A stretch of DNA of 64,000 bases from Truepera sp. (GCA_965218435.1 CBDCKW010000005.1:448001-512000), one strand, 5' to 3'. Shown: positions 2,122 to 32,700, numbered from the stretch's first letter. The notes: a model not told the origin generated them from the letters alone. Numbers and translations: made by a program.

Positions 2122-3850
2122 AGATACCGTTGCCGAACTAAGCTGCGAGCCTAGCAAAACGTGAGACACGAGTTTTCGAGCGAGGTTTATAATCAAACCA
2201 GGCTGCTAAGCGTGTCACATTAATGGCCGTAGCTATAGCAACGTTCTGGAACTGCATTTTGGATTGCCCAAAATAGCGGGAGCGCCGCAAGCCAAATGCT
2301 CTAACGCCTTGCGACAAAGTGCCCTCGATACCCGAACGTTTGCTATAAATCGCGTGCCACTCGGATGTTTGTTGGTTGCGTCGGGCCGCTTGGAGTGCTT
2401 CATGCTTCTCTTGCGGTTTGAAAGCGATAGCCCGTGGATCTTTCGTTGAGCGGTGGCAACGCGCACGCTGCTCACACGAAAAACAGTCTGCTTTAGCGAA
2501 CAACATATAGATAAGCTCATTGCCGTTTCGTTTATCAATACGCTCCGACCAGTACACGCTTTTCTTATCGTTGGGACAAGTCACCTGCTCAGTCTCCCAA
2601 TTGATGGCGAAGTCGTTGATACTGTAGGCTCCTTCGGTCTTGGCTTGCCAACGGTGATTCGCGGGCAACGGGCCACACAACGTCACGTCATAGCTTTTCT
2701 GGCTCTCTACTAATAGTTCAGTGTCCATGTAGCCAACATCAACGAGATGCACGTCTGGCAGCAGGTTCCTACTTTCCAAGTTGCGGTGAAGGTCAGGAAT
2801 GGATTGGTTATCGTGGCGACTAGGGGTATCGGTGGCCACATGGGTGATGAGGTGGACAAAGTCTTCCTCACACGTTTCGGTAACATGGACTTTGTAGCCC
2901 TTCCAGCGCAGGTCGCGTTTGCTGCCCAGCCGCGCGTCGGGGTCACAGGGTGAAGCGAGAAGGATGCTGTTCGGAGGCAAGTCTTTAGCTTCGCGCCAGC
3001 GCACCTCACCATCATCGAGCCAAAACTGCTGTACCCACATGCGCCTGAGTATCTCTATGGCCTCTAACTCATCTAGTCTCGTTGATGTTTCGGAAGCGTA
3101 AACCTCCGCTAGCAGGTGAAATCCATCTTCGCCGGTGATCTTGGCAAGCTCGCTAATTTTCTCTTTGCCCTTGGGTAATCTGAAACTTTCAAATCGTTCA
3201 CCATAACGCTCAAACCAGCTGTCGGGAACCCGTGATCTTAGCCACTCCGGTTCGACTGTAGCTAGCGTATTGAGCGCAAGCCGCATCGTTTCAACCAGGT
3301 TGCCGAGCCGATTCAAGCTTCTGACTTTGGACAGTACATGGGTCGAGTCGGTTCTTGCCTGACCACGTTTCTTAATCAATCCTTTCGCCGCACAAGCAGC
3401 GAGAAGTTGGTCCAGCAACCGATGCTCGGCGTTGCCCTGAAGCAGTCGTTTGCGAAACTTGCTGAGTACTGTAAAGTCAAAACCGGAATCGGTGAGTTCT
3501 AGGCCCAGTGCATACTTCCAGTCGATGCGGTTTCTGACAGCATCAGCAGCTTCTCGGTCGGGCAAATCTTCGGCAAATTGCAGCACGGTAACTACTGCTA
3601 AGCGCCAGGGTGCCTCAGCTGCTTGTCCTACAACCGGGTACAAGTCGGCGAACAGCTCATCGTGATAAATGCCCGCTAGCTCATCGCGTAAATTCATCGC
3701 TAAATTGCCTCTGCGATAGATGGCTTTGGCAACGCGGACGGTTTCTTCAGGGACAAACAGCGGGTTGCTGGGCTGAAGCGACATAGTGGCCTCCTAAGTC
3801 GCTTCAGTTTAGATTCGCCAACTTCGCTTTTTGATTCGGCAACGGTATCT
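2122..3850 (-). mobile_element. IS1182-family insertion sequence, copy A
   Basis: Perfect 16-bp terminal IRs AGATACCGTTGCCGAA (2122..2137) / TTCGGCAACGGTATCT (3835..3850) enclosing one transposase. Confidence 0.9.
2138..3784 (-). CDS. IS1182-family DDE transposase
   Basis: 548 aa; DUF772-like N-terminus (LPDREAADAVR.RIDWKYALGL..GFDFTVLSKFR), DSTH, GYKVHVTE, DVGY, Cys cluster, RSGIEGTLSQ. Confidence 0.92.
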   Translation of the reverse strand: MSLQPSNPLFVPEETVRVAKAIYRRGNLAMNLRDELAGIYHDELFADLYPVVGQAAEAPWRLAVVTVLQFAEDLPDREAADAVRNRIDWKYALGLELTDSGFDFTVLSKFRKRLLQGNAEHRLLDQLLAACAAKGLIKKRGQARTDSTHVLSKVRSLNRLGNLVETMRLALNTLATVEPEWLRSRVPDSWFERYGERFESFRLPKGKEKISELAKITGEDGFHLLAEVYASETSTRLDELEAIEILRRMWVQQFWLDDGEVRWREAKDLPPNSILLASPCDPDARLGSKRDLRWKGYKVHVTETCEEDFVHLITHVATDTPSRHDNQSIPDLHRNLESRNLLPDVHLVDVGYMDTELLVESQKSYDVTLCGPLPANHRWQAKTEGAYSINDFAINWETEQVTCPNDKKSVYWSERIDKRNGNELIYMLFAKADCFSCEQRARCHRSTKDPRAIAFKPQEKHEALQAARRNQQTSEWHAIYSKRSGIEGTLSQGVRAFGLRRSRYFGQSKMQFQNVAIATAINVTRLAAWFDYKPRSKTRVSRFARLAA

Positions 3851-6397: not shown

Positions 6398-8126
6398 AGA
6401 TACCGTTGCCGAATTAAGCTGCGAGGCTAGCAAAACGTGAGACACGCGTTTTAGAGCAAGGTTTTTGCTCGAACCAATCTCTGAGGCGAGCTGCATTGAT
6501 GGCAGTGGCTACGGCGATGTTCTGAAACTGCGTTTTGGGCTGTCCGACGTAGCGGGAGCGCCGTAAACCGAATGCCCTAACGCCTTGCGACAAGGTGCCT
6601 TCGATGCCCGAGCGCTTGCTGTAGATGGCGCGCCACTCGGGCGTTTGCTGGTTGTGCCGGGCGGCTTGGAGCGCTTCGTGCTTTTTCCTAGGTTTGAAGG
6701 CAACTGAACGGGCCTGCTTCGTCACGCGGTGGCAACGTGCCCGCTGCTCGCAGACCAAACAGTCGTTTTGGGCGAACAGCACGACAATCAAGTCGTTGTC
6801 GTTGCGCTTATCTTTGCGTTCCGACCAATACACGCTTTTCTTGTTGCTAGGGCAGGTTACGTATTTGGCATCCCAATCGATGGCGAAGTCGTCGATGTTG
6901 TAAGCCCCCGCAGGTTTAGCCTGCCAACGGTGATTGGCGGGTAAGGAACCATGCAACTTCACGTCAAAGCGTTTCTGACTTTCCACTAACAGTTCGGTGT
7001 CCATATAGCCTGTATCCACAAGATGTACGGCTGGCAGAATGTTCTTACTTTTCAAGCCGCGGTGGATATTGGGAACGAGCTGGTTGTCGTGACGGTTCGG
7101 TTGACTGGTCGCTACATGAGTTATGAGGTGAACGGCGTCTTCTTCACACGTTTCCGTGACGTGTACTTTGTGGCCCGTCCAGCGCAGGTCGCGTTTGCTA
7201 CCTAAGCGCACGTCGGGGTCATAAGGTGAAACGAGAAGCACACGGTTCGGGGGCAAGTTCTTGGCGTCGTGCCAGCGCACCTCGCCGTCGTCGAGCCAGT
7301 ACTGCTGCACCCACATGCGCCTGAGGAGTTCGACAGCCTCCAGCTCGGCTAGGTTGGACGGCGCATCGGAAGCGTAAACGCGCTCTAGCAAGTAAAACCC
7401 GTCCTCACCCGTGATCCCAGCAAGGTCGCTAATTTTCTCTTTCCCCTTGGGTAATCTGAAACTTTCAAATCGTTCACCATAACGCTCGAACCAAGTCTCG
7501 GGAACCCATGCGCTAAGCCACTTCGGTTCGCGGGTAGCCAGCGTGTTGAGAACGAGCCGCATCGTTTCAACCAGGTTGCCGAGCCGGTTCAAGCTTCTGA
7601 CTTTGGCGAGCACGTGGGTCGAGTCGGTTCTGGCTTGACCGCGCTTTTTGATCAACCCCTTCGCAGTGCAGGCCGCTAAAAGTTCGTTCAGCAGTCGGTA
7701 TTCGGCCTGACCTTCAAGGAGCCGTTTGCGAAACTTGCTCAGAACCGTAAAATCAAAGCCTGAATCGATAAGCTCTAGGCCCAGCGCATACTTCCAGTCG
7801 ATACGATTTCTGACCGCATCGGCAGCTTCCCGGTCGGGCAGGTCTTCGGCAAATTGCAGCACAGTCACTAACGCAAGCCGCCAGGGTGCTTCAGCCGCTT
7901 GTCCCACAACCGGGTATAGGTCGGCGAATAACTCGTCACGGTAAACGCCCGCTAGCTCATCGCGTAAATGAATTGCCAAATTACCTCTGCGATAAATAGC
8001 TTTAGCAACACGGGCGGTTTCTTCAGGGACAAACAGCGGGTTACTCGGTTGAAGCGACATAGTGGCCTCCTAAGTCGCTTCAGTTTAGACTTGCCAACTT
8101 GGTTTTTTGATTCGGCAACGGTATCT
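6398..8126 (-). mobile_element. IS1182-family insertion sequence, copy B (diverged from A)
   Basis: Same 16-bp IRs at 6398..6413 and 8111..8126. Confidence 0.9.
6414..8060 (-). CDS. IS1182-family DDE transposase
   Basis: 548 aa, colinear with 2138..3784 but with many substitutions. Confidence 0.92.
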   Translation of the reverse strand: MSLQPSNPLFVPEETARVAKAIYRRGNLAIHLRDELAGVYRDELFADLYPVVGQAAEAPWRLALVTVLQFAEDLPDREAADAVRNRIDWKYALGLELIDSGFDFTVLSKFRKRLLEGQAEYRLLNELLAACTAKGLIKKRGQARTDSTHVLAKVRSLNRLGNLVETMRLVLNTLATREPKWLSAWVPETWFERYGERFESFRLPKGKEKISDLAGITGEDGFYLLERVYASDAPSNLAELEAVELLRRMWVQQYWLDDGEVRWHDAKNLPPNRVLLVSPYDPDVRLGSKRDLRWTGHKVHVTETCEEDAVHLITHVATSQPNRHDNQLVPNIHRGLKSKNILPAVHLVDTGYMDTELLVESQKRFDVKLHGSLPANHRWQAKPAGAYNIDDFAIDWDAKYVTCPSNKKSVYWSERKDKRNDNDLIVVLFAQNDCLVCEQRARCHRVTKQARSVAFKPRKKHEALQAARHNQQTPEWRAIYSKRSGIEGTLSQGVRAFGLRRSRYVGQPKTQFQNIAVATAINAARLRDWFEQKPCSKTRVSRFASLAA

Positions 8127-12211: not shown

Positions 12212-12248
12212 AGAGAAGAAACACTCTTCGCTAGAGTGTTTCTTCTCT
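12212..12248. repeat. array junction site, perfect 16-5-16 palindrome
   Basis: AGAGAAGAAACACTCT-TCGCT-AGAGTGTTTCTTCTCT. Confidence 0.85.
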
Positions 12249-13129
12249 CATGACAGGTAACGAACGATACGTTCACACCGAGCAGGGTCACAAGTGAGAC
12301 CGACACTTAGCCCCCACAGCCAGTAGTCCACGCAGCGAACGTAGGTCCATAAACGCGTCAGCTCGTCACCTAGCTCCGCAGCTTCAACCAACGTTCGGAA
12401 ATGCGTCTCGAAACCACCTTGCGCTTCGATATCCTCCAAGCGACACCAGAAAAGCTGGGCGACCCCAAATTCAGGCTTACCCACCACAACTTTCGGATCG
12501 ACAACTAGCCACGGTTCGCGCTCGCTTGCAAGGGTATCAAGGTAATGAAGGTCGTAGTTCACCAGCAGGGTACCCGTGCTATCAGCCAGCTGAGCGGTAA
12601 GCTCACAGGTGTGGTCAAGAACTTGTCTGGGCAGAGCTTGACCGTATTTTGCCCAACGCTGCGGCATCATCTCGAGGGCTTCTTGCCCCCACTCCCAAGT
12701 CGTCATGACGCCAACCGGAGCAGGAACGGCTAGGCGGCGCAGTAATTGACCTGCTACGGGTATGGCCTCTTTAATGAGAATGTCGTTGAGAGAACGTTTG
12801 AAGTCCAACCGCTCTAATACCATCGCGCCGTGTTGTGGCGAGGTTTCCAGTAACCGAACAGCTCCCCGACCGCCCCAGATGGCGAGTGCGAGAGATTCGG
12901 TGCGAGTAGAGCCGTCCAGCCAAGAGACTTTGAGAACGCACGCTTCCTCTCCTCTCTGGACCGGAAAAGCTAAACTTAGACCACCGTGCATCACGGGACC
13001 ATCAACCCGCAAATCCCACTGCCGACACAGCATCTCAACAAGGGCCGGTAAGTGGTCGAGCCATGCCTGGCCCGCTACGCCCTCACGAGCTACCGTATCG
13101 GCAGCAAAGCGTCTGGGAACTACAATCAT
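12248..13129 (-). CDS. aminoglycoside/hydroxyurea phosphotransferase, APH(6)-like
   Basis: W.GRGAVRLL, M.LERL, DLHY.D.L, W.VVDPK...G.PEF. Confidence 0.85.
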   Translation of the reverse strand: MIVVPRRFAADTVAREGVAGQAWLDHLPALVEMLCRQWDLRVDGPVMHGGLSLAFPVQRGEEACVLKVSWLDGSTRTESLALAIWGGRGAVRLLETSPQHGAMVLERLDFKRSLNDILIKEAIPVAGQLLRRLAVPAPVGVMTTWEWGQEALEMMPQRWAKYGQALPRQVLDHTCELTAQLADSTGTLLVNYDLHYLDTLASEREPWLVVDPKVVVGKPEFGVAQLFWCRLEDIEAQGGFETHFRTLVEAAELGDELTRLWTYVRCVDYWLWGLSVGLTCDPARCERIVRYLS

Positions 13130-13173: not shown

Positions 13174-13200
13174 TGAAATGGAATAGCGAAGAGTGTTTCA
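13174..13200. repeat. array junction site
   Basis: TGAAATGGAAT-AGCGA-AGAGTGTTTCA; the right arm AGAGTGTTTCAACTT is identical to 5162..5176. Confidence 0.8.
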
Positions 13201-13216
13201 ACTTGTCTTCAGATGT

Positions 13217-13663
13217 TCAGTTATCTTCAAACCAGTCTTCAAGTGCTTTCCACTCGTTCTCTCTGACGGGAAAGTTCGTTCCTCTTGCCTGGGCAAAGAT
13301 CGAGAGATTCCATAAGTCGGGGTCACACTGCAAAAAATCGCGGTAGAGCGGCTTCTCGACGATGACCTTTTCATATTTTACTTTGACACGCGGATGGACT
13401 CTGAGACCGTCGTTAGGATCTGTCCAGTAGCTTCGTCCCTGCACGGAATCCGGGCGCACAACGGGATCGGTCGTGACAATTCCTAAAGCGTAGACGCCTG
13501 CCTTTTTACCGGAGATCCAGATCAGCACTCTATCGCCCATTTTGATTTTTGCATGGTGCTGTTTGCAGTTCCAGAACTCCTCGGCTTCTACGGCTAAAGA
13601 GGTGTGGATGTCGTAGAGGTTCGGATTTGCCTGAAATATCCAGGTAGCTTGGCTGCTCGTCAT
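13217..13663 (-). CDS. EVE-domain protein
   Basis: WIFQANP..YD, W, IK.GDRVLIWISG..AGVYA.G, L.I....GTNFPV...EW; ATGA overlap with the upstream gene. Confidence 0.8.
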   Translation of the reverse strand: MTSSQATWIFQANPNLYDIHTSLAVEAEEFWNCKQHHAKIKMGDRVLIWISGKKAGVYALGIVTTDPVVRPDSVQGRSYWTDPNDGLRVHPRVKVKYEKVIVEKPLYRDFLQCDPDLWNLSIFAQARGTNFPVRENEWKALEDWFEDN

Positions 13664-14628
13664 GCTTGGTTTTCCTCTGGTAAAGCATCGAGGGAGGTTA
13701 ATTCTCGTCCGTCTACGGCGATGTACCTCGGGTAAGGAGGCAAGACGTCGCGTCCGTAGAAGTGGGGTATTTCCGAAGGGTTAACGGTGCGGCCTTGCCA
13801 AGGCAGGGGTGGGGCGTACATGATGGCCGCTTCACGCTCAACGCATAAGAGTGACGACATCAGGGTAGCGTCGTCGTCTAGGTGATAGCGGTGCAACTGT
13901 GGGAGTTGTGTGGTGACACCCAAACCGTGATTGATAAGGAAGGTCTGGGTTGCCAACATTGACGCCCTCGTCCATAGACGTTCGTGGTCGGTGGGGAGCA
14001 AGATGTACCCTGCCGACCGCACACTGTTTGTAAGTTCGCACCCTCGTGTGATGAAGAGGCGTGCGCTCGCACCCGAATTGCTGGCTCCGTAGGATGGGTT
14101 GGTATAAAACGCGTCGAAGGTACCGATAAGTTCTTTTGGAGGCGGATCGAACACGTTATAAAGCCTGCCTGCAAACCACTCTGAGAAATGATGCCCTTCG
14201 GCGAATGTCCTGGCGACCTCGAGGAGACAGTCGTCAAAATCGAGTAGCGCCATCTGTGCTGGACCCCTAAGTAGGCCGTGGCTACTGAGTAGACCCAGGA
14301 GTAGACTGGTTCCGTCATGATCGCCGACAAACACGACGCGCTTGCCCGCCAGATGCGGCGCAATCAGCTTGACCTGACATAAGAGGTCGCTTCCGCGCAT
14401 CGGAATCTGATCGAAGTCCCTTAGCGACTCCGGGCGGGCATCTTCCCAAAGTGCGAGCAGCTGCTCCTCTTCGGGCGTGACTTGCCGATAAACAGCGTTC
14501 TTCAGAAGACTGCCGAGTGCTGCGTAAGCGCCCGTTCCTCCTGCTACCGTTACGTCTGAGGATGACGATATATGAGCAGGCATCCTAGGATGCCTGCTCA
14601 TATTAAGTCCTTGGTCGGGCGACCTCAT
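13660..14628 (-). CDS. BpsA/DUF43-like class I SAM-dependent transferase
   Basis: RPESLRDFDQIPM, GKRVVFVGDHDGTSL, LLDFD, FDAFYTNPSYG, LFITRG. Confidence 0.75.
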   Translation of the reverse strand: MRSPDQGLNMSRHPRMPAHISSSSDVTVAGGTGAYAALGSLLKNAVYRQVTPEEEQLLALWEDARPESLRDFDQIPMRGSDLLCQVKLIAPHLAGKRVVFVGDHDGTSLLLGLLSSHGLLRGPAQMALLDFDDCLLEVARTFAEGHHFSEWFAGRLYNVFDPPPKELIGTFDAFYTNPSYGASNSGASARLFITRGCELTNSVRSAGYILLPTDHERLWTRASMLATQTFLINHGLGVTTQLPQLHRYHLDDDATLMSSLLCVEREAAIMYAPPLPWQGRTVNPSEIPHFYGRDVLPPYPRYIAVDGRELTSLDALPEENQA

Positions 14629-15206
14629 GCGGCCGCCTCCAGATCGTCACCCTGCTGGTAGTGATCCCAGAGATTGAGCGTTTTGATCCGCATCTCGACG
14701 AGCTCGACACTGGCCCCGTACTTGCCAGCGATGTGCGCGGCACTGTCACCTCGGTAAACCGCTTTGGCGACCTCTTTTGAAGGAAGTAGAGCGGCAGCAG
14801 CCGTAAACTTGGCTTCTTGCTCTTCTTCCTGATAGTAGGCGGCGCGTCCGCTGGAGCCGATGCTCACAGGGGTATGTCCGTGGTAGTGATGTGCAACCTC
14901 TTCGAGAAGTGTAACGCGGGCACGCTCAGGCGTCTGTTGACGGTTTAGCACTACAAAGAGTTTCCCTATAGGCAGTTCGTGGCTCATCCCAGACCACTCT
15001 TTGGCGTCTAAACGGTCCAACTCCGCCAGAACCTCTTCAGATAAGTTAGGAATCTCGTCGTGATATTTCAACACGACGCCTAGCTCGGCTTGCAAAGTTA
15101 AGGGGTCAAAAGGCTCATAGGATCCGACGCCTGCTTTTGCCCTAAGTGACCTGGCGCTCTCCTCGTAGTGATGCATGATGTCTTTAGTCAGTTGGGGCTT
15201 GGGCAC
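14625..15206 (-). CDS. ImmA/IrrE-family metallopeptidase-like protein (EExxH variant)
   Basis: WSG, LN..Q..ER.RVTLLEEVAHHY.GH, EQEA...AAA.LLP, C-terminal HTH (IA.KYG.S.E.V.MR). Confidence 0.8.
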   Translation of the reverse strand: MPKPQLTKDIMHHYEESARSLRAKAGVGSYEPFDPLTLQAELGVVLKYHDEIPNLSEEVLAELDRLDAKEWSGMSHELPIGKLFVVLNRQQTPERARVTLLEEVAHHYHGHTPVSIGSSGRAAYYQEEEQEAKFTAAAALLPSKEVAKAVYRGDSAAHIAGKYGASVELVEMRIKTLNLWDHYQQGDDLEAAA

Positions 15207-15223
15207 GTCATCTCCTTATCTCC

Positions 15224-15838
15224 TTAAGCAGTTTCTTCGTTCGCAGCGGCTTCATAAGCAAACTGGAACATCTGTGCAAGATTTTTAGCGGCTTTGGGGC
15301 TTAGTTTGGGATCAGCACGCAAGAAGGCAGATACCTGATGCGGCACATTCGTGGGCGGAACCATCTCTGCTAAATCCTGAGCAGTCTCTACACCACGAAG
15401 CTCTCTATGCAGATTGACCCCAAAATGCTCTTCCATCTGAAACGAGATGCCCATAGCCTCGAGGATGCGTTGTGCCCGCTCGACAGTCACGCCGTGGTAC
15501 TCATTGCGCTCGTCACGTGATACTTGCGCGTCGGATACGCCAAGCTCTTGGGCAAGTTCTTTTTGACTCCAACCTCGGGCAATACGTGCGCCGATCAGCC
15601 ACCGACCCACGCTTTCTAAGCTCTCGAGCGTCCCAAGGTCGCCCCGCTTCATGTTCTCGTAAGCCAAGACCTCCTCCTCGAGCTGGGCTCGAAACGAAAG
15701 TAAAGGATGCAGGGCGCGCTCGAGCGCGTCACCCGTCAGGCCAGCCTCTACAAGTTGGTTTCTTTGAGCCTCCAGCTGTATTTTTCCTTCCTCGAGCTGT
15801 TTGAGCATTCTTTGGTATTCGCTTTCGGTGCGGATCAT
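15224..15838 (-). CDS. XRE-family HTH regulator with N-terminal helical extension
   Basis: MIRTESEYQ helical N-terminus; LIGARIARGWSQKELAQELGVSDAQVSRDERNEY. Confidence 0.85.
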   Translation of the reverse strand: MIRTESEYQRMLKQLEEGKIQLEAQRNQLVEAGLTGDALERALHPLLSFRAQLEEEVLAYENMKRGDLGTLESLESVGRWLIGARIARGWSQKELAQELGVSDAQVSRDERNEYHGVTVERAQRILEAMGISFQMEEHFGVNLHRELRGVETAQDLAEMVPPTNVPHQVSAFLRADPKLSPKAAKNLAQMFQFAYEAAANEETA

Positions 15839-16380
15839 CTTAGACCTCCTTCCTTTTGTAGTAAGACGACCCCCTTCTGGGCAAAGGTGGCGCGTTGTAA
15901 TCGAAACGCTGAGGGGAACGTCAAGGGTTGACCGTAGGGATCGGTGATCCCTGAAAACTGATCAAAGTGGGGGAAGAGTTCGACCCGGTAACGGTGCCAC
16001 ATGGGGAGCTGCTTTTTGATATGCCCCCGATAAGGTCGCCGCGTTGCCGGATCCCAAGTCCAGACCTTATGGGGATCGAGAGCGTTGAGCTGCCGCGTGA
16101 GATCGTCTAAGGCAACCGCGTCACAAGTAAAGTAGCCGTCGATATCATTGGGATGAGCTTTATCTTCGACAAAAGAACCGTCTAGTACGACTTCAGCAAT
16201 TCCTACCTCCCATAACTGCCTGACAAGAATCTCGGCCTGGTTGACCAATTGCAAGCGCCAGTCTCGATCCCAGCCTTCGCGGTCGTTCTCTACTAAGGAC
16301 GATTCACGGAGTTGGGAGAAGGTGGTGGGGTAGTCACCTGCTGGTAGCAGGCCCCGGTTATCGAAGTCAGGAATCGTCAC
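15835..16380 (-). CDS. minimal nucleotidyltransferase, DUF6932-like
   Basis: IPDFD.RGLLP.GDY, LDGSFV.DK.HPNDID (polbeta GS/DxD motif), C-terminal KGVV.L. Confidence 0.75.
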   Translation of the reverse strand: MTIPDFDNRGLLPAGDYPTTFSQLRESSLVENDREGWDRDWRLQLVNQAEILVRQLWEVGIAEVVLDGSFVEDKAHPNDIDGYFTCDAVALDDLTRQLNALDPHKVWTWDPATRRPYRGHIKKQLPMWHRYRVELFPHFDQFSGITDPYGQPLTFPSAFRLQRATFAQKGVVLLQKEGGLR

Positions 16381-16389
16381 TTCGATATA

Positions 16390-16408
16390 TTATCATAAAT
16401 GATGATAA
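16390..16408. promoter_or_regulatory. candidate operator of the five-gene operon
   Basis: TTATCAT-AAATG-ATGATAA palindrome in AT-rich DNA 10 bp upstream of the GTG. Confidence 0.5.
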
Positions 16409-16513
16409 ATTACTAGACGATAAACATTTATGTTAATTTCTGGATTGTTAAACGCTGTAGCGTTGGCAGCAGGTGTAGATTGCTCAAGCAGAACTACAAC
16501 CATCTGCTCAGTT

Positions 16514-16828
16514 TTAGTGAGGTAGAACTTGTATCCGGTACCGCCCCACTCGGTTCGCCGCAGGCTCGAGCCCTTCCAAGAGCCCTAGCTCGACAAGCCT
16601 TTGCAGCGCCTCGGTCGCGTTCCGGTGCGAGATGCCTAGCAGCCCCTCGAGCTGCCTGACCGACACCTCAACCTCACCGTAGGGCTCGAGATAGAGGTAA
16701 ACGAGCCGCGTTGTCAGCGTCTCATCTTTAAGTGCTTCAGACAGGTGCGGCGGGTCTCTAGGCACGTCACGTCCGTCACTAGCGCCAAGGTGTGTTGGGT
16801 TTCCCCTCAGTTCGACCGCCTGGTACAC
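16514..16828 (-). CDS. small winged-HTH protein
   Basis: RLVYLYL...SVRQLEGLLGISHRNATEALQRLVELGLL. Confidence 0.6.
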   Translation of the reverse strand: MYQAVELRGNPTHLGASDGRDVPRDPPHLSEALKDETLTTRLVYLYLEPYGEVEVSVRQLEGLLGISHRNATEALQRLVELGLLEGLEPAANRVGRYRIQVLPH

Positions 16829-23634: not shown

Positions 23635-26600
23635 ATGACTTTCGAGCGCCGCCGAACTGCCTCTAAAAACCTTGGTGACGACTACCGCGATGTTATCGGG
23701 CTTGAGTACCTCATCGAGATGGTGCGTGCCCCTGAAGATGTTCTCTGGGTGAGCTTCGAGGCCGATGATGCAGGCAGCCTCGATGACGTCTATGTTGGGC
23801 GTACTGAGGGCGTCGAGTACATCCAAGCCAAGTATGCGGTTGAGCCGGGTGAGTGGTCATTGGAAGATCTTTTAGAACGCGAAGACGGCCCCCGTGCCCG
23901 CAGCCTGTTGCAGAAGTGGGTGGACTCTTGGCGTAAGGTAAGAAGCTTAGGGCACGCTTATACGCTAACCGTACGAACACGCCGCCGCCCGAATAGTGAA
24001 CTGGCCGCTTTATTTGAGGGTAACACCTTGTCCACCAGGATTCTCGATGGCGAAAGCTTCGGCGTAGAGAAAGCTGCCGTTTTCGGCCACCTCGGTGAGC
24101 ATGGTTATGAAGCAGCCGACATCCGACGGTTTCTTGGCGAATTACGTTTCGACTTCGAAGGCGTAGATGTGGAGGCGAAGCGAAACGACCTTAAGCGCGC
24201 TTTCCTCGCGCTCGGGGCGGAGGAGGAGAACTGGCTCGCGCTGCTCGACGCTCTGCGCACTTGGGTCCGCTACAAACAGCCCGGATCTGACGGTCTCGTT
24301 AGGCTCGGCGACATGCGCAAGGCGGCACGCTTGTGGAGCCCTGAGGAGGTGCGCCTGCCTCAAGACTTTCCCCTGGACGCTACGATCTACATCCTCGATT
24401 ACGGTCGGCGTCGGCAGGTCGAAACACTTTTAGAGGAAGCGGCAGGCAGTATGACGCTCCTACGTGGCGCGCCGGGCAGCGGCAAGAGCAGCTTTCTCTC
24501 CTGGCTCGCGGGCAACCCACCTATGGGCGTTAATCACGTGTTCCGGCATCACTGTTTCTTGGGCCTCGAGGACGATACGGCCGGTGCCAGGTTGGACGCG
24601 GATCGAGCCGCCTTGGCCCTCCTCGCCGAGGTAGTCACCGCAGCCCGCGAGCTCATCTCCGAGCCTGAGAAAAACAACCCGGCGGCGCTCGAGCGTGCCT
24701 TGCAAGAGGTAGCAGCGGCAGTGCACGCCGACGGGGGCAAGGTGCTCATCATTCTTGACGGGCTCGACCACGTGGTGAGAGAACACGACCTCGAGGAGGC
24801 CCGGCGACTGCTCAACTACCTGCCTTCCCCCGCTCCCGAGGGTCTTCATATTTTGATCGGCACGCAGCCCGTACAAGACCTGCTCGCGCCCCGATTCCAG
24901 CGCACCCCCAACACCGAGGTCTGGGTGGACGGGTTTAGCCTTGAGGGCACTGCCGCGTACCTTATGGCTCATGCGCAGCAGCACATCGACGACACACTTG
25001 TGCAGGCCGTCCACGAGAAATCCGATGGGAACCCCCTCTACCTGCACTATCTGGTTGAAGCAACGGTCGGCGCAGGTGAGGTGCTCACTGACCGCGCGGT
25101 GGCCCGCCTGCCCGCGTACGGCGGCGACATCGCGGCCTACTACCACGCCCTTTGGAACCGCCCGAACAGCGGACCGGTCAGCGACCGTGAGGCCGGAGAG
25201 GCCGTGCGCTTGCTGCTCGCGCTGCTCGGGTGGGCTAGCTTCGCGCTCCCCCGGGAGGACCTCGGGTACTTCGCCCGCCAGCTCGGGGTACCCGTCGTAC
25301 AGCTGAGCGCCGCTCTGCGTGACGCGACGCATCTACTCGACAGGCGTCGGCTGGAGCAAGGCACCCTTCGGCTCTACCACGAGAGCCTGCGCCGTTTCGT
25401 GCGCGAGCAGGATGAGGCCAAGACGTATCGCGAGACGGCGCTCGAGGCGCTCCTAAGCTGGGTTAAAGAGCGCGCCGATACGGCGACACGTTGGAGTGCC
25501 GAGTGGGAGCTCGAGCTGCTCCTCGGCAACCCAGAGCCACTGCTCGCCGGAGTGACGCGCGATTGGGCAATCGCGTCTCTCGACGCCCACCGACCCCACC
25601 AACGCCTTCTAGAGCTTTCACAATTAGCTGTTGAGGTCGCCGCCGATGCGGGTGACTTAGCTGAGCTTCTGAGGCGAGGTTGGCTCCTTCACTATGTAGG
25701 CGAGGCAACCGGTCATGAACGCCGGGACGCCGCGGGCTTTCATCTAAGTGCACGAGTAAGTAATGGCATGTCCAGAGACGAACTGACCAATATCCTGGCG
25801 AGCAAGAACGTCTACGGAGCGCAAAGTCTCGCAGCACTCGCGCACGCCGCCTTTCGCGATGGTTCTACCGAAGCGCCACGTCAGCTGCTCGACATGCTCG
25901 AGCATCAGCACCGCAAGGATGAGGCTTTCCTTACAACGCTTTTCAAGCTGCTAGCCTACGCCGAAATCGGTCCAGCCGGAGTGCTCACCTACTACATCAC
26001 TAACCTTAAGCACACGAAATCTACAGTGAGGTTTAATCAAGACTCGCCGTACCGCTGGCGAAGTGGATTCCGAACTTACCTGGACACGCTTACCCTGACT
26101 GGACAGGAAGAAGCCCTTCGTCACGTTGGCGAGGCGGAAGACTTAAGCCTTGCCGACCGTCAGACGGTTTACGACGCACAACTTTCTTTGGTCGTTAGCG
26201 AAGAGCGAGTAGAAGACGCTGTGAGCTTCGTAAATCAAGGCACTCGCTCAGCCTACGGTCAATGTGTCGCGCTAGCTCTAGGGCTTACGACACTACCTCC
26301 AGAAGGCGAGACGCTGCTCAGGCGCGATCCGGCACCTCGCGAAGTAAGATACAACGACGATGCAGGCTGGTCGAGCGACCACCTGCAGCTGGTGTGGTCG
26401 AGCGTCTGGTGGGCGGCACATGGTAGGCATGAAGCCCTTGAAGCCGAGGCCGAGAGGTTAGAGGGGCTCGGCATTCATGGTTGTTTCCTCAACTATCTAA
26501 TTCGGCTTGGGATGCGTGTACACGCATCCCTCGAAACGTCGAGCGAACTGGACTTATCCGCCGTCATCGCAGAACTACAGTCGCTCGTGCACCCTAAGTA

Positions 26601-29550
26601 TCCCAGCGAAGATGACTATTATGCGTGGCGGACTGGAGTCGACCATCTTCTAGAGTATCTGTCAAGAGTATCAGAACTGACCGCCCTCAAAAACCTAAAG
26701 CTTTGCGTACGTGCCGAGCATATGAGAGCCCTTCTTCACAGCCCTATCCAGCTTGAGCGAGTGCTTGACTGGCTCGTTACCAAAGGGCACCGGTGGGTGC
26801 CACAGGAGGAGCAAAACGCTATTTTAGAGGTTCTCGAAAGCTGGATCATGCCCATGCGCGAGCATTTTTCAACGCGCGCGCAACTCCTCAGCCGCCTCGC
26901 GGAGCTGGCCGCCCTGTTCGGCCAGGCAGAGCGCGCTGAGGCGCTGCTCCGGCGTGGCGCGGCGAACCTGCTCGGCTACGGTTTCCATAAAGATGCGTTG
27001 CTGTACGAGGTCATGAACGCGCTAAGCGCAGCGCACACCGCGGAATACCCTGACTACGAAAGAGATCTGCTCAGGATCGCGCCGCTGGTCGATGCAATGC
27101 CCGAGGTGACGGACGGGGACGAGACGCGGGGGTTCGGCCTAGACCTCCACAAGGGGTTACGGCAGGCGGGATCCGGCACCGCCAACAAGCTCGCCCTTCG
27201 TTACAGCGCCGAGGAGGACGTCTTTAGCTTCGACAGGGCAATAGCCCACATGCTCGGAGCGGCCGCACCTGACGACCCGGTGGCTCACGCTATGGCACAT
27301 ACGCTCACAAGCGATATCGGAGCGGCGAAAGAATTCTTTGGAAGACGCCTGAGCTACCTGCGCCAGAATGATGTTGATAGTGCGCCTCGAGCTGAAGCCG
27401 CCTACAGGCGGTGGCTCGAAGTTGAGTGCCCACCGAACCTCCGTGGCGAGCCTGAGGTGCGTCAACCAGAACGCGCATATGAAGGCGAACCCTTGCCGGA
27501 GAAGCTCGAGCGATTAACAGGACCGGCGGACCTACTTTCCTTGATTCAGGATGAACCCAGCTTCGTTTTCGATTATTCGACCTCTCCATGGATTACGCAT
27601 TTAATCCTGATATGGGAAGCAGATCGAGTTAAGGTGAACCGATCGGACGCGCGGACCCTTGCTCGAGTTTTTCTGAGCGACGAACGCTCTCGCGTTAGGT
27701 ATGACCTCTACGACGCGCTGCACACCATGCTCTGGCGCATTGGGGAGCGTCAACTTGCATTTGAGGCTCTCGTAGTGGCGCACTCTGAGGCGTGGGGTTG
27801 GTCGCGCTATATGACCTCATTCGAGGCCAACTCGGCTCGTATAGACCTCGTACTGGAACGTTTTCCGGGAGACTTCCTCACTTTTATCGTTCGAACGGCC
27901 CGTAGCGGCGGCGCGGTTATGTCGACAGGCCGAATTGTAGAGGCCCTGATCCGCGGAGGCAACCGAAGCCTCGCGTTCGACATCGTGCGGTCGTTCGTCG
28001 ATTTCGCGACCACGCTCAGGGCCGACCTAAACCTGCACCAGCCCGACTGGATAGAGGGACCAGAGGTTTCCGACGCCATCATCCTCTTCGAGCGGCTTGC
28101 ACATACCGAAATCGCCGTCCGGGAGCGAGCGGCACACGCTGTGGCGGACCTCATCAGTGAGCAGCCACAGGTGTGTGGTGCCCTTGCGTCGTGGCTATGT
28201 GATCAGCAGCAGGAGACGCGAACTTACGCCGGTCTGCTCGCTCTCACGCTCGCGTCCCAGCGGAAGCACGTGCCTATAGCGGACGTACTTCCGCGACTGC
28301 AAGCTCACTTGCGCGGTATGAGCGTCACCGCTCAGCTCCTATTCGACGTGCTCTCTGCAAATGCCGGGTGGGCACGCTCGCCTGACCGCCAACCTCCTAG
28401 CTTGCTTTTCAACGAACCCGATATGTCTACACCCCCGGAATGGTTTGAGAAATCACTTGCGAACTGGCCGGGCTTTGTGGAATGGTTGAGGGAGATAGAG
28501 AGCACAGCGCCAGGGTTGACGGTAAACGTATGGCGGTTCGCGCGCACGTTAGGGCTAACAGAAGGCATGGTGGACGAGAGCAACCAGCTTCTACGTCGTT
28601 ACGTCGATTATCGGAAACGTTTTCAGAGCTATATCTACCCTCGTGCTCGCGACGTCTTGGAGTCATCCTTAAGTCTCGCGCTGACGCACAGGCTCCAAAC
28701 CGCTGGGGTAGACGATGAAGCTATACTTCTACAGCTAGAAAGACCTCCTGTCGATCCCTTTCTCGAGCAGCTTGAGATCGACCCTAAACCTACCTGGCTT
28801 CCCCGACCCGGTAAGCAGGAGAGAGGGCTTACGACGTGGTCCGCTCAAGCGGAATCCGAAGTAAGAGCACAACTTACTTTGGATAAGGTAGGGGACACTA
28901 TTCTCTCCCTCGATGCGGGGCTGGTCGAGGGAGATGGCGAGACGTTGTGGCGTGCCGAGGCGATCGCATTCCTCCATAAAACGCGGGGAATCTTGCCGCA
29001 TGCTCAAGATCTGTGGGAAAGACTCGAGAACCTAACCGCGGGTTCGGTAGCACCTCTTTCGTGGCGACTTGGAGGGGAAGGAGACATTGTCTCGTTTCCT
29101 TCTGACGGCTCGTTTATAATGCGCGGGCTCGAGGTGCTTCCCTTGGTAGGAACGCTGCGCACGCAGGGCGGCTACTGGCATCAGCTCGCGCTGAGCACAA
29201 ACATGCGTATTCCGTTGCTCGACCATGGTTTTTTTGACGATCTGATCCCTGTTCTATCCGACGGACACCTTAGTTACCGAGACAGGGCGAAGAATGCCGA
29301 GCGGATCCGGATGAGTATTTGGCAAGACGGGATGCTCAGCAGGTTGTTCAGCGGTGTGGCTGCTAATAACTGCGGCAGTTTTTTGTCGGTCGACGCAAGG
29401 TACTTAAACGGCCGATTAGACGGCAGTGGCTGGTCCCTAGGTTGGGCACTCTCGAGTCGGACACAAGTGCGGCAAGGTTACCAGGACGAACTCGCGGAGG
29501 CAAAATGTTTCGAGCTTATCAATGTGTCTTCCATCATAAGACGTTTCTAG
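23635..29550 (+). CDS. giant STAND/NACHT NTPase with N-terminal PD-(D/E)xK-type nuclease (Avs/NLR-like defence protein)
   Basis: 1971 aa; GDDY..SLDDV..YIQAKY nuclease, Walker A GAPGSGKS, Walker B IILDGLDH, GNPLYL, long helical C-terminus. Confidence 0.8.
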   Translation: MTFERRRTASKNLGDDYRDVIGLEYLIEMVRAPEDVLWVSFEADDAGSLDDVYVGRTEGVEYIQAKYAVEPGEWSLEDLLEREDGPRARSLLQKWVDSWRKVRSLGHAYTLTVRTRRRPNSELAALFEGNTLSTRILDGESFGVEKAAVFGHLGEHGYEAADIRRFLGELRFDFEGVDVEAKRNDLKRAFLALGAEEENWLALLDALRTWVRYKQPGSDGLVRLGDMRKAARLWSPEEVRLPQDFPLDATIYILDYGRRRQVETLLEEAAGSMTLLRGAPGSGKSSFLSWLAGNPPMGVNHVFRHHCFLGLEDDTAGARLDADRAALALLAEVVTAARELISEPEKNNPAALERALQEVAAAVHADGGKVLIILDGLDHVVREHDLEEARRLLNYLPSPAPEGLHILIGTQPVQDLLAPRFQRTPNTEVWVDGFSLEGTAAYLMAHAQQHIDDTLVQAVHEKSDGNPLYLHYLVEATVGAGEVLTDRAVARLPAYGGDIAAYYHALWNRPNSGPVSDREAGEAVRLLLALLGWASFALPREDLGYFARQLGVPVVQLSAALRDATHLLDRRRLEQGTLRLYHESLRRFVREQDEAKTYRETALEALLSWVKERADTATRWSAEWELELLLGNPEPLLAGVTRDWAIASLDAHRPHQRLLELSQLAVEVAADAGDLAELLRRGWLLHYVGEATGHERRDAAGFHLSARVSNGMSRDELTNILASKNVYGAQSLAALAHAAFRDGSTEAPRQLLDMLEHQHRKDEAFLTTLFKLLAYAEIGPAGVLTYYITNLKHTKSTVRFNQDSPYRWRSGFRTYLDTLTLTGQEEALRHVGEAEDLSLADRQTVYDAQLSLVVSEERVEDAVSFVNQGTRSAYGQCVALALGLTTLPPEGETLLRRDPAPREVRYNDDAGWSSDHLQLVWSSVWWAAHGRHEALEAEAERLEGLGIHGCFLNYLIRLGMRVHASLETSSELDLSAVIAELQSLVHPKYPSEDDYYAWRTGVDHLLEYLSRVSELTALKNLKLCVRAEHMRALLHSPIQLERVLDWLVTKGHRWVPQEEQNAILEVLESWIMPMREHFSTRAQLLSRLAELAALFGQAERAEALLRRGAANLLGYGFHKDALLYEVMNALSAAHTAEYPDYERDLLRIAPLVDAMPEVTDGDETRGFGLDLHKGLRQAGSGTANKLALRYSAEEDVFSFDRAIAHMLGAAAPDDPVAHAMAHTLTSDIGAAKEFFGRRLSYLRQNDVDSAPRAEAAYRRWLEVECPPNLRGEPEVRQPERAYEGEPLPEKLERLTGPADLLSLIQDEPSFVFDYSTSPWITHLILIWEADRVKVNRSDARTLARVFLSDERSRVRYDLYDALHTMLWRIGERQLAFEALVVAHSEAWGWSRYMTSFEANSARIDLVLERFPGDFLTFIVRTARSGGAVMSTGRIVEALIRGGNRSLAFDIVRSFVDFATTLRADLNLHQPDWIEGPEVSDAIILFERLAHTEIAVRERAAHAVADLISEQPQVCGALASWLCDQQQETRTYAGLLALTLASQRKHVPIADVLPRLQAHLRGMSVTAQLLFDVLSANAGWARSPDRQPPSLLFNEPDMSTPPEWFEKSLANWPGFVEWLREIESTAPGLTVNVWRFARTLGLTEGMVDESNQLLRRYVDYRKRFQSYIYPRARDVLESSLSLALTHRLQTAGVDDEAILLQLERPPVDPFLEQLEIDPKPTWLPRPGKQERGLTTWSAQAESEVRAQLTLDKVGDTILSLDAGLVEGDGETLWRAEAIAFLHKTRGILPHAQDLWERLENLTAGSVAPLSWRLGGEGDIVSFPSDGSFIMRGLEVLPLVGTLRTQGGYWHQLALSTNMRIPLLDHGFFDDLIPVLSDGHLSYRDRAKNAERIRMSIWQDGMLSRLFSGVAANNCGSFLSVDARYLNGRLDGSGWSLGWALSSRTQVRQGYQDELAEAKCFELINVSSIIRRF

Positions 29551-29721
29551 TGGGGTTACGTTTTTCGCTGATTCGAAGGTGATCTCCAAATGCCTAACTA
29601 AATAAGAACCCCTGTGCCTATATCGCATCCGCTTCACCGGATGGGGTTTTGGGAATAAGCATTCTTGTCAGGAGGATGTGCAGGGGCTGCTCTGTCTTAG
29701 GCGCAAATTCTCACACCTACT

Positions 29722-32700
29722 GTGGCCAGAAAGCTCAGATTACAGAACCGTTCTGATATTTTGAAGACCGTGCAGTATTTTAGGAATGAGAAGCCTTATC
29801 AGTGGCCCCGCTACTGGTATCCGCGCGAAACAGCGATAGATATCAAGGAAGGCTTTCTCTATCTTCCAGAGGGCCGGTATGCCGCTTATCAGACGTCCGC
29901 TGCCAAAAGCCTAACAGCGCTCCATAAGCATAATTGCCTTATCTTGCTTGGTGAACCTGGTATAGGTAAAACCTACACCTTAAAGAACTACCCTATTGCT
30001 GAAGGTGCGCAACTTCTTCACGTTGACCTTGGCGAATTAAGCACAAAAGAGGAAGTGTCGCAACAAATCTTTCAGGATCATCGCTTCCGATCTTGGAGTG
30101 AGGGGCGTCATGATCTCCACCTCCTACTCGATAGCTTTGACGAGTGCCATCTGTCTTTGGGAACGCTGGGACATGTACTTGTTAACGAGTTCCGAAAGGC
30201 TCTTGGTTTTGCTAACGTTTCGGAGGCTGAGTACCGAGCATTCAAAAAGGCTCATCCTGAGCCCTACGCTGACCTCGAGCCGTTCACTCAAATGGTAGAT
30301 CAAGCGAGATGGCGTATCGACTTGGAAGCGTTACAGAAAGATGAATCGGTATCGTCTGAGGTACATACTTGGTTGTACGACAAAATGCCGTTATCCCGCC
30401 TTCACCTTCGAATTGCCTGTCGCACCGCCGACTTCCCACCGACATTCTATGAGCGCCTCAAAGAACTCTTTGGTTCTGTGGAGATCTTTGTTTTAGCACC
30501 CTTGCGCCGTAACGATGTATATATCGCGGCGGAGCAGCATAACATCGACGCTGAGGCGTTCCTAGACGAGGTCCAGCGCAGCGGGTTTGGCCCGCTGGCG
30601 TCTGTACCGGTCACACTAAACCTGCTTCTAAGCGAATTCAGGACGTCGGGAACACTCGAGGTGCAAGGTGAACATCCCTTCGTCAGCGGTGGTAGGCGGT
30701 TATGTCAAGAGTTGAATCAAAGTCGCCTAGACACCTACCGTAGCAGCTTGGTTAGCCCAGAACGGTGCTTCATGGTTGCAGCTCGAATCGCGGCTTTACT
30801 GACCTTCTCCAATAAAGATACTGTCTTTACCGGAGATGTCATAGAAGCTATGGAGGACGAACTGCTGCTACAAGATATCTGCGGTCACTCTGAACAGGCT
30901 CATCAAGAGTCCTTCACCGTTGACGAGGCCATCGCTAAAGAAACTCTACGCCGCGGTCTTTTTGCTGACCGTGGTAGATCTCGTCGTGGGTTTCTTCACC
31001 GGCAGTTTCGCGAGTATTTAGCCGCTTGGTACTTAAGCGAGCGGCAGCTCCCCGTTAAACAGATGCTAAACCTTCTTGAACATCCGGTAGATGGTGAGAT
31101 CGTACCACAGCTTGCGGAAACAGCTGCTGCTTTAGCGTCGCTTGTCCCAGGCGTATATTCCCATTTTCTGGCGAAAGACCCGACAATTCTCGTCCGGGGC
31201 AACCTATCTAATCTTGAGGAGCAAGAACGAGCCAGTTTAGTTGAGGCTCTCATACGAAAATTTGAAAGTAGTGGCCCTCCCACTGCCGACGATTCGCTGT
31301 ACGGACAACTCTGGAAGGTACGTCATAAGGATTTGGCAACGCAGCTTGTGCAGCTCCTTGACCCACTACAATATCGAGATAAAGACTACAAACGCTTCGC
31401 CCTACGTTTTGCCTGGTACGTTAAGCTTGAGGAGCTCTCAGAGCGAACGGCGACTATTGCGCTAGACCCGCATGAAGCTGAGGACGTTAGATATCTCGCG
31501 GCTATGGCAGCAGCTCAGCTCGGTAGCGCCCAAATCCGACGTTCGTTGCAGACGCTACTCGAGGAGAATGATCCACTTGATGAGTTCAAGGGCATCGTCC
31601 TGAAGGCGCTGTGGCCGGAGCATCTTAGTGCAGCACAGTTGTTCACGCACCTCACACCACCTAAACGCTCAAGCTTACTCGGAAGCTACAAAATATTCCT
31701 CGGAAATTTTTCGACGGATCCTAGTGAACCTGCCGGTTTTGTGGAGTTCCTCAAGCCAGAGGATCTTCCCACTGCGCTTGACTGGTTGGCAGAGAACGAA
31801 AGAACAAACTACACAGATGACGATTTTCGTGAAGCGGGTGACGGCATCATGCTTAAAGCGTGGCGAGCATTTGACCGCTCGGAGATTGCCGAGCGATTCG
31901 CTCGCCACGCTTTGCGGCGTCTTAATGGACATCTACGGATCGTAGGCAATGCGCAAAACAATTTCGAGAACGCCTTCACCGAAAATTTACGTCTTGAACC
32001 TGAGAAACGGCTACAACTCGTTAAGCTGCTCATCTCGGAACGCGATAGAAACTTTAGGACGTCGTTGCTAATCACTTATCACCCACCGCTCATCGAAAGA
32101 CATAAACGTGACGTAATGTGGCTGCTGGAGCATCTCAAGCAGACCTTAGACCCAGTTGAACGCTCTACCATTTTAACCTTGTTGCCTTATCTCCTTGACG
32201 AGAACAATCCTAGCGTTCGGGATCTTATTCTGTTTGCCGCACATCAAGACCAAGAGCTTACTGACGCGTTGGGCCTACGACCGATTAATTTAGATTCTGA
32301 AGTGGCCAAGCAGGCACGTAAGCATCTTGAGCAACGAGAAGCATACTCGCAGCAGCGCGCCGTTCAGGAGAAGTCCGACATCAGCGTCTCGAATCCGTTA
32401 AGCAAGATGCGAGAGGCTCTTGACGACTTTGAGGCTGGTCGCATAGCTGCTTGGAGCGATGTGCTTTTTTACATGTCGATGAAACCAGGTGGCAACGCCT
32501 ACACTAGAGAATTTAATCTTTACGTTGACACGCACCCGGGTTGGCAACGGGCTGACAAAAAACTCAAGACGCGCATTCTCGGAGCAGCCCGAAATTATCT
32601 CAGCAGCTTTTCGGCAGCCCAGGAAGCGCACGCCTCGTGGATACATCCACTCGACTTCCCTGGCTACCGTGCGCTGCGGCTCCTCTTTAGCGCTGATGCT

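Follow-up and report, generated by a model that had tools for sequence, protein, structure and literature searches.

Related systems and the locus

The (PIN)-GNAT-EVE operons, which also involve ASCH and AAA_17, have been predicted to be toxin-antitoxin or base-modifying systems; their source describes them as untested by experiment, and fusions of methyltransferases to EVE domains as extremely rare (PMC7641849). A second related system, PUA-Cal-HAD, is a defence triggered by m6-dAMP in which a PUA-superfamily domain is linked to modified-nucleotide enzymes, with MazG in related contexts. Here we describe a locus in a stretch of 64,000 nucleotides from Truepera sp. (GCA_965218435.1 CBDCKW010000005.1:448001-512000, the whole of which is called the window below), where five minus-strand genes encode a DUF6932 protein, an XRE regulator, a peptidase-like protein of the ImmA/IrrE family (M78), an enzyme predicted to depend on S-adenosylmethionine (SAM) with the fold of the polyamine synthase BpsA, and an EVE domain protein (Table 1). 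The last four of these make up a core that travels as a unit across at least four phyla. Judging from the nearest named loci and the searches by phylum, the host would belong to Deinococcota.

Judged by analogy, this module would work most like the predicted (PIN)-GNAT-EVE systems without being a member of them. Both tie or fuse a group transferase to an EVE domain, have an XRE helix-turn-helix (HTH) protein nearby, show AAA_17 in related operons and lie close to restriction-modification (RM) systems; the operon differs by its BpsA-fold SAM enzyme and its fixed ImmA-type protein, and none of its five genes encodes a GNAT, PIN or ASCH domain. The terms DUF43, COG1568, spermidine and Peptidase_M78 are absent from the text and three text supplements of PMC7641849. 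The likeness to PUA-Cal-HAD lies in the features named above, but the operon has no calcineurin-like or HAD effector and its EVE domain is not of that PUA-like family; the main text of that work makes no mention of polyamine, aminopropyl or peptidase (10.64898/2026.01.15.699771). The original prediction knew of no named system with this combination, in agreement with the PADLOC search, which assigned neither the enzyme nor the EVE protein to a system and gave for these two no match better than E 0.02. Nor was the module described, or DUF6932 named, in a literature search whose scope was literature other than subscription journals. The module is real, conserved and undescribed in the literature searched: its kinds of parts and its logic are known, and a new enzyme family stands at its centre.

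A four-gene core conserved in fixed order

Starting from an alignment of 69 enzyme homologues, we collected 98 loci (18 from genomes and 80 of 89 from metagenomes) and grouped them by enzyme identity alone, 51 at 43% or above and 47 below, counting only loci with enough flank. At 43% identity or above, EVE follows the enzyme in 41/41 loci, the ImmA-type gene precedes it in 40/40, and an XRE gene precedes ImmA in 33/33, so that the co-occurrence in fixed order that the original prediction called for is found elsewhere. The prediction of a five-gene system holds for these four genes but not for the fifth: DUF6932 leads 10 of the 33 loci with room for it and is absent from the other 23. Loci of close kin and the same record found twice inflate these tallies and overstate their independence, which tells against leaning on the counts; the occurrence in four phyla is unaffected by this. 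That the XRE regulator, the ImmA-type protein (with EExxH in place of HExxH), the BpsA-fold enzyme and EVE form a conserved unit is, in our judgement, close to certain. Measured against the closest locus (L019), dN/dS is 0.05-0.12 for all five genes of the operon, which are thus under purifying selection.

The enzymes linked to EVE form one clade (SH-aLRT 100, quick tree) inside a wider family with an NPPY motif, and four of 109 homologues, at two places on the tree, are enzyme-EVE fusion proteins. Within EVE, residues W8, F10, Y17 and W31 are invariant in 28 rows. Given the fixed order and the fusions, the best reading of the module is the one originally proposed, a SAM-dependent writer tied to a nucleic acid reader. 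The module is rare and patchy, being present in 7 of 364 genomes of the phylum and in 0/127 other genomes of this genome's family. RM, TIR, Argonaute or DUF499 genes flank 8 of 24 core loci, a figure without background control, in a scan that covered 87 of 88 picked flanking open reading frames (ORFs) and 10 from the sister clade. A MazG gene follows EVE at L006, L023, L151 and L152. At L012 (8496-12046), EVE is immediately followed by a long Argonaute (Piwi) gene with a DpnII-like nuclease, and the module is preceded by a type I RM system; at L032 (4613-5993) GNAT and aGPT-Pplase3/ADDT genes, which have been linked to DNA hypermodification, lie 2-3 kb downstream of the core module.

The enzyme shares the fold of BpsA, not its active site

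BpsA (EC 2.5.1.128; PDB 5xnc, 6j27) is the closest solved fold to the structural model of the enzyme (pLDDT 90.8; Foldseek 5e-15), with Z 26.4 to 5xnc, rmsd 2.5 and 21% identity over 233 aligned residues (BpsA range 91-345, residues 1-90 being unmatched). Second to it comes METTL5, an m6A methyltransferase (Z 19.7, rmsd 2.9, 197 aligned). The BpsA literature describes Asp159 and Asp160 within a GDDD motif, an aminopropyl-carrier cluster of acidic residues at the C terminus, and the polyamine-site residues Asp225, Glu259, Tyr290 and Tyr316 (PMC12979288). Mapping these residues by sequence spacing through Thermus-type BpsA rather than by superposition, we find GDHD in the window enzyme, and across the locus enzymes an acidic residue at the Asp159 position in 1/88 and at the Asp160 position in 88/88. 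At the polyamine site, Asp225 corresponds to Asn177 (90/90), Glu259 to Asp214 (58/90), Tyr290 to Tyr248 (89/90) and Tyr316 to Leu256 (88/90). The C-terminal end likewise differs, as BpsA-type loci carry a DEE motif and the enzyme family a FYG..PPYP segment with no conserved acidic tail; a conserved YHLDD loop could substitute for the carrier cluster. The label "BpsA-like SAM enzyme" in the original prediction therefore stands for the fold but not for the BpsA active-site residues and acidic tail, and the enzyme appears BpsA-like in the former respect only.

What stands in place of the DPxE of BpsA is NPPY, found in 89 of 90 family enzymes with NPPF in the remaining one (Asn177 in 90/90, Tyr or Phe180 in 90/90), and the Asn at the Asp225 position belongs to it. 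The enzyme family shares this [N/D]PP[Y/F] motif IV with amino-methyltransferases (METTL5, N6-adenine methyltransferases), in which we take it to serve as their motif IV. The PADLOC methyltransferase model mad2 weakly matches 44 of 69 family members (best 7e-9), and Thermus-type BpsA is distant from the enzyme family on the tree. Our trees are quick trees, the second built on 58 rows; the placement of L101 (BpsA-type, 16% of columns) in the first is void.

The nature of the donor bears on the same question. SAM is favoured over decarboxylated SAM because the module itself lacks a SAM decarboxylase, and because PF02675 was found in only 5 of 15 host genomes (a control matched in 7/14) and in 0/3 hosts at 99-100% completeness. 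Together with the residue comparison, this bears on a reading in which the enzyme is an inducible aminopropyl or aminocarboxypropyl transferase acting on small amines, its polyamine-like product shielding DNA or RNA under stress, and EVE a nucleic acid-binding helper with no defence role. Such a reading draws on the BpsA fold, on the conservation of G102, D103, D105, D130, D132, H246 and Y248 (the GDxD, DxD and HxY motifs shared with BpsA), and on the stress link implied by an IrrE-like regulator in Deinococcota. It is opposed by the near-complete loss of acidity at the Asp159 position, the Asn fixed at that of Asp225, the lack of an acidic carrier tail, the lack of speD in the module and the failure to find it in the three near-complete hosts, a fused base reader for which a polyamine synthase would have no need, and a patchy, mobile spread. 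The family occurs mostly in non-thermophilic hosts, in a mobile operon without speD, which also differs from BpsA. We consider this stress-protective role improbable, and it is very probable that the enzyme is not a polyamine synthase. That it is directed at nucleobases is the more probable option, with appreciable doubt.

The allele of the present strain departs from its family. At columns invariant in the other 68 alignment rows the window enzyme carries R134C and P179S, so that its motif IV reads NPSY, and at a further column, where 67 of the 68 other rows have Trp, it carries Leu (W236L). Two such columns are broken in only 2/69 rows and none in 59/69. Over the whole enzyme gene the window is matched by contigs from two runs of a single sample, probably that of origin, and one depth-2 contig from another study carries an Arg codon at the changed position, which is weak evidence that R134C is a recent change. 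Judging from these substitutions, the enzyme of this strain may be impaired or inactive.

The wider enzyme family and its second partner

Below 43% identity the neighbourhood is different: EVE occurs in 1 of 41 loci, and a protein of about 190 amino acids (aa), here called C5, adjoins the enzyme in 30/38. The EVE clade is nested among these loci on the tree, and this topology suggests that EVE replaced C5. Neighbours in the sister clade include an AAA_17 kinase-like protein (12/46), a small membrane-type protein (13/46) and an ImmA protein with HExxH, and one subgroup of the wider family adjoins radical SAM, asparagine-synthase-like, HhH-GPD glycosylase, MazG or guanylate-kinase genes; the kinase, membrane-protein and radical SAM counts come from an earlier grouping made partly by EVE match. 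These neighbours point to nucleotides. Copies of the wider family lie on five plasmids and two IMG/VR contigs. Viral searches with the enzyme, which were insensitive, returned nothing, and the C5 query found two IMG/VR contigs holding a sister-clade enzyme.

The same neighbours bear on an alternative in which the enzyme is part of a signal circuit: it would make a modified nucleotide or an MTA-type product that EVE (or C5) senses as a ligand, comparable to the PUA-like domains of PUA-Cal-HAD, and the output would be carried by DUF6932, by the ImmA-regulator pair or by the sister clade's 2-TM-like protein. The kinase-like, MazG and guanylate-kinase genes fit nucleotide-level substrates, the small membrane-type protein would offer an output, and the PUA-Cal-HAD study reports a PUA-like domain that binds m6-dAMP and triggers an effector (10.64898/2026.01.15.699771). 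The EVE clade, however, has no fixed effector, MazG follows EVE in one lineage only, the fold of C5 is unproven, and the enzyme-EVE fusions fit substrate targeting equally well or better. We regard this circuit as doubtful, and retain the writer-reader reading.

Two further arrangements of the family are recorded here in their own right. At L076, L079, L080, L087, L088 and L096, a short NPPY BpsA-like enzyme is found with radical SAM/SPASM, asparagine-synthase-like and HhH-GPD genes, in some cases also with MazG, guanylate kinase or C5, and in protein P0167 a radical SAM domain is fused to such an enzyme; this looks like an undescribed base-hypermodification cluster. A sister system at L014, L016, L017, L063, L066, L068, L070, L072, L077, L089 and L095 consists of an HExxH ImmA gene (capP 7e-33 for L063), a small membrane-type protein gene, the enzyme and C5, an AAA_17 kinase-like gene being optional, and no PADLOC model matched C5 or the small membrane-type protein. 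Beside sister-clade modules at L130, L131, L166 and L167 (and L013), on rhizobial plasmids and prophage-like contigs, lies a convergent 330-aa ImmA-like gene together with a 215-aa gene, the latter beginning with a DND motif and presumably PIN-like.

An ImmA-type protein with EExxH

The pairing of an XRE repressor that has a conserved C-terminal domain with a neighbouring M78 peptidase is shared with CapH/CapP, DdrO/IrrE and ImmR/ImmA, and the operon peptidase retains the catalytic Glu, the second His and the third-ligand Glu of these systems. It differs from CapP in its zinc site, where HExxH is replaced by EExxH: among close relatives the latter is found in 41 of 42 (EDxxH in one), compared with HExxH in 11 of 12 distant relatives. 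The downstream third-ligand Glu is present in 43/43, and a fixed Glu suggests, from conservation, that the metal site is kept. At 193 aa, with its M78 domain at residues 67-175, the protein is in size and domain content presumably nearer to a short ImmA. CapP measures 288 aa and has a C-terminal GAF domain forming a groove for single-stranded DNA (10.64898/2026.05.16.725639), for which the operon peptidase has no room; likewise capH and capP are divergent (10.1101/2022.04.27.489752), whereas here regulator and peptidase genes are co-oriented with each other and with the cargo genes inside the operon. PADLOC gives generic capH, capP and RmrA matches for regulator and peptidase, capP at 1e-6 over 145 of 242 positions. 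The DNA-damage sensing of the CapH/CapP type that had been invoked is not borne out by these features and remains an analogy. XRE-peptidase fusions with EExxH are found on plasmids of Rhizobium etli, Nostoc sp. and Sulfitobacter sp. (L163, L164 and L165), and the Nostoc fusion is divergent from a cluster containing SAVED and ThiF, resembling a CapH-CapP fusion.

A DUF6932 pair grafted in front of the core

The DUF6932 protein carries GS-x9-DxD, and G68, S69, D79, D81 and E134 are invariant in 10/10 relatives. We take GS-x9-13-DxD with a third acidic residue as the signature of polymerase-beta minimal nucleotidyltransferases, and the protein is predicted to be of this type, although a search of the PDB gave no credible match. 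The PADLOC model PDC-M63A matches it partially (1e-10, residues 9-97). The operon resembles PDC-M63 in this match of the first gene and in the two-gene layout; it differs in that no PDC-M63B match is listed for the second gene and in that the partner is fused to the C-terminal domain of the core regulator.

DUF6932 forms a stand-alone pair with a partner of about 135-155 aa at L104, L110, L121 and L127 and on a Mesobacillus plasmid, and residues 1-136 of our regulator match these partners with 57-61% identity (44% on the Mesobacillus plasmid). Its C-terminal domain carries the LRA[D/S] motif found in 33 of 36 core regulators. The regulator is thus a chimera, in which the coiled-coil-HTH part of a DUF6932 partner replaced the HTH of the core regulator. 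All four named Deinococcota genome loci at 43% or above have DUF6932 and all eight from Chloroflexota, Armatimonadota and Actinomycetota lack it, and DUF6932 and its partner are a front end grafted on in one Deinococcota lineage. By these comparisons DUF6932 is an optional, toxin-antitoxin-like passenger, and four genes rather than five form the system. Its proposed role as the nucleotidyltransferase effector is not supported, given its absence from most close loci and its existence as a two-gene unit elsewhere. An IrrE-type ELRG cleavage site in the regulator occurs only in the window and in L019 among 37 rows, and was not used.

The promoter tells a similar story. The 80 bases upstream of the operon are 75% A+T, as expected from the AT-rich promoter originally noted. 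Conservation in DUF6932-led loci centres on a 6-4-6 palindrome, TTAACA-N4-TGTTAA, which occurs in 19 of 20 promoters (shuffles: mean 2.3, maximum 7) and in at least two copies in 15/20; its consensus was drawn by eye from a first promoter set and recovered in 8 of 9 promoters outside that set. Only 1 of 25 HTH-led loci without DUF6932 has it, so promoter and operator arrived with the DUF6932 pair. The 7-5-7 palindrome of the original prediction does exist (16390-16408), in a genome (4.8 Mb) with 15 perfect AT-rich 7-5-7 repeats, but as a conserved operator it is ruled out by its presence in 0/19 related promoters; it is this strain's variant of the second operator. TANNNT precedes the start codon by 5-7 bases in 16 of 20 DUF6932-led loci (shuffles: mean 3.1, maximum 9), and a sigma-70 scan did not list the -10-like hexamer of the window. 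A leaderless promoter starting from this box is probable, and autoregulation of a leaderless transcript is a simple reading of how the palindromes are placed.

The DUF6932 pair, stand-alone and autoregulated-looking, invites the view that the whole operon is a selfish addiction cassette that does nothing for its host, a stack of toxin-antitoxin pairs (DUF6932/HTH, ImmA/regulator, enzyme/EVE) in which EVE would be the antitoxin to a toxic SAM enzyme. A same-genus genome (L111/L148) holds a broken copy of the module, decay that may also affect the copy described here, and toxin-antitoxin and insertion sequence (IS) genes lie nearby. Yet the four-gene order is fixed across phyla and never reshuffled into pairs, and fusion to the enzyme would be unusual for a labile antitoxin. 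A purely selfish cassette thus seems to us a remote prospect beside a conserved writer-reader module.

A proposed mechanism and its weak points

How the writer-reader module might work can be sketched from the sequences. The hybrid regulator would repress the leaderless promoter through the two palindromes, and on stress or infection the ImmA-type protein would lift this repression, either cutting the conserved C-terminal domain of the regulator or binding to it. The enzyme, using SAM and not decarboxylated SAM as donor, would then add a methyl or 3-amino-3-carboxypropyl group to a nucleobase amino group in RNA, DNA or a free nucleotide. EVE would give the nucleic acid recognition that the bare catalytic domain lacks, as has been proposed for GNAT-EVE toxins, and the outcome would be growth arrest or damage to the invading element. 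The biochemical steps, namely target, chemistry and defence role, are inferred. For the whole, an inducible conflict module whose enzyme alkylates a nucleobase amine under EVE guidance, our judgement is evenly balanced; we lean slightly towards a role in conflict or defence, and to a like degree favour de-repression through the ImmA-type protein.

Several observations weigh against this proposal. The enzyme keeps the equivalents of BpsA Asp158, Asp160 and Tyr290, as would suit aminopropyl-type chemistry with a small amine as acceptor, and this genome does contain a SAM decarboxylase match, albeit a weak one (29 bits, the cut-off being 25). NPPY is not base-specific, since it also occurs in the GDDD-type relatives P0223, P0229, P0239 and P0244, and HemK-type enzymes use NPPY on glutamine. 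No nuclease or membrane effector can be recognised in the core. On the regulatory side, EExxH may signal a dead peptidase, and the regulator-ImmA pair is separable: the L147 genome has DUF6932-HTH-ImmA without an adjoining enzyme or EVE, and XRE-EExxH fusions lie beside other cargo on plasmids. As to C5, it may be PUA-like, a lead only, drawn from a language-model search in which its ESM Atlas clusters had 12-16% PF24405. Its 24 members gave no credible Pfam match (one at E 0.088), PF24405 was found in 0/5 host genomes, an hhalign comparison of C5 with EVE returned nothing, and the single-sequence model of C5 has a pLDDT of 35. Finally, a single E. coli study of PDC-M63AB, a related PADLOC candidate, saw no defence (10.1101/2024.12.20.629700).

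A bolder version of the nucleobase reading, which we put forward as unlikely in its entirety, is that a widespread BpsA-derived family moved from polyamines to nucleobases. It would place the 3-amino-3-carboxypropyl or aminopropyl arm of SAM onto an exocyclic base amine, a PUA-superfamily partner would choose the target, the new base would serve as an inducible anti-phage weapon or alarm, and the EExxH ImmA switch would sense something other than single-stranded DNA.

Layout and surroundings of the operon

The five co-oriented ORFs of the original prediction, their overlaps, the gap and the domain calls were all recovered (Table 1). Three of the four joints are ATGA overlaps and one is a gap of 17 bp, and the Pfam matches for the three middle genes are HTH_3 (2e-11), Peptidase_M78 (2e-12) and BpsA_C (2.5e-14).

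Table 1. Features of the operon, its promoter and the adjacent repeat; positions are counted from the first base of the window.
Feature	Position	Strand	Remarks
DUF6932 protein, 181 aa	15835..16380	-	Pfam 1e-27; PADLOC PDC-M63A 1e-10; accessory
Chimeric XRE regulator, 204 aa	15224..15838	-	Residues 1-136 DUF6932-partner-like, plus core C-terminal LRAD-motif domain
ImmA/IrrE-family (M78) peptidase-like protein, 193 aa	14625..15206	-	EExxH; third-ligand Glu kept
BpsA-fold class I SAM-dependent transferase (predicted), 322 aa	13660..14628	-	Family motifs GDxD, NPPY; here R134C, P179S, W236L
EVE (PUA/ASCH superfamily) domain protein, 148 aa	13217..13663	-	Pfam 8e-17
Upstream operator-like palindrome, 11/12 to TTAACA-N4-TGTTAA	16421..16436	-	Motif in 19/20 DUF6932-led promoters
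Second operator-like palindrome, 9/12	16390..16405	-	Overlaps -10 box; 24-28 bases before start in 17/20 loci
-10-like hexamer	16387..16392	-	6 bases before GTG start; candidate leaderless promoter
17-bp repeat copy	13184..13200	+	Motif recurring at transposase ends in 2-13 kb; outside system

The flanks form an island in which insertion sequences and small stress genes are joined by PIN toxin-antitoxin pairs and by a nuclease-NACHT gene of Avs-like type. The operon had been described as bracketed by array junctions, which holds on one side only, as the 17-bp motif is found downstream only and a weight-matrix scan detected no copy between 13.2 and 19.8 kb of the window. The repeat occurs at both ends of the transposase gene 2138-3784 and at one end of the copy at 6414-8060. 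A cassette array is ruled out by this one-sided position and by the tie to transposase ends, and because its copies flank transposase genes the repeat is probably an IS end or target rather than a cassette site or part of the system. Copies in the window lie at about 2122, 3850, 5156, 8126, 9015, 11363, 12218-12249 and 13184, that near 12230 being the centre of a long palindrome, and others are found on genome contigs C5 and C7 and at L019. Some abut the ends of DUF772/DDE transposase genes, which we take to be of the IS1182 family, and others lie between small stress genes; such clusters are possibly gene cassettes bounded by IS ends, or a preferred IS target.

Directly upstream of the operon (16514-16828) is a small winged-HTH ORF, with similar copies at several sites on contig C5, some of them apparently broken. 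Further away, at 23635-34170, a nuclease-NACHT protein of 1971 aa, which matches PADLOC Avs1b at 2e-17 and whose N-terminal part gives an endonuclease-like match, is encoded ahead of a STAND-like NTPase of 1482 aa that PADLOC did not match; the two are likely an Avs/NLR-type defence pair. At 49413-50618 lies the gene of a DUF4062 protein, whose N-terminal part matches PADLOC PDC-S60 (1e-38).

Implications for the enzyme family

Databases file the enzyme family as "bis-aminopropyl spermidine synthase", a label contradicted by the residue tests given above. Two side findings can be tested, namely the conserved EExxH subfamily of peptidases and the DUF6932 pair together with its operator. The compact enzyme-reader pair, with its natural fusions and its copies in cultured strains, among them intact ones in Calidithermus chliarophilus DSM 9957 and Deinococcus saxicola DSM 15974, offers a way to probe recognition by orphan EVE domains and to ask whether the BpsA fold modifies nucleic acids. 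If the proposed reading is true, the family would bring to light either a new base modification or defence effectors of a new, SAM-dependent class.

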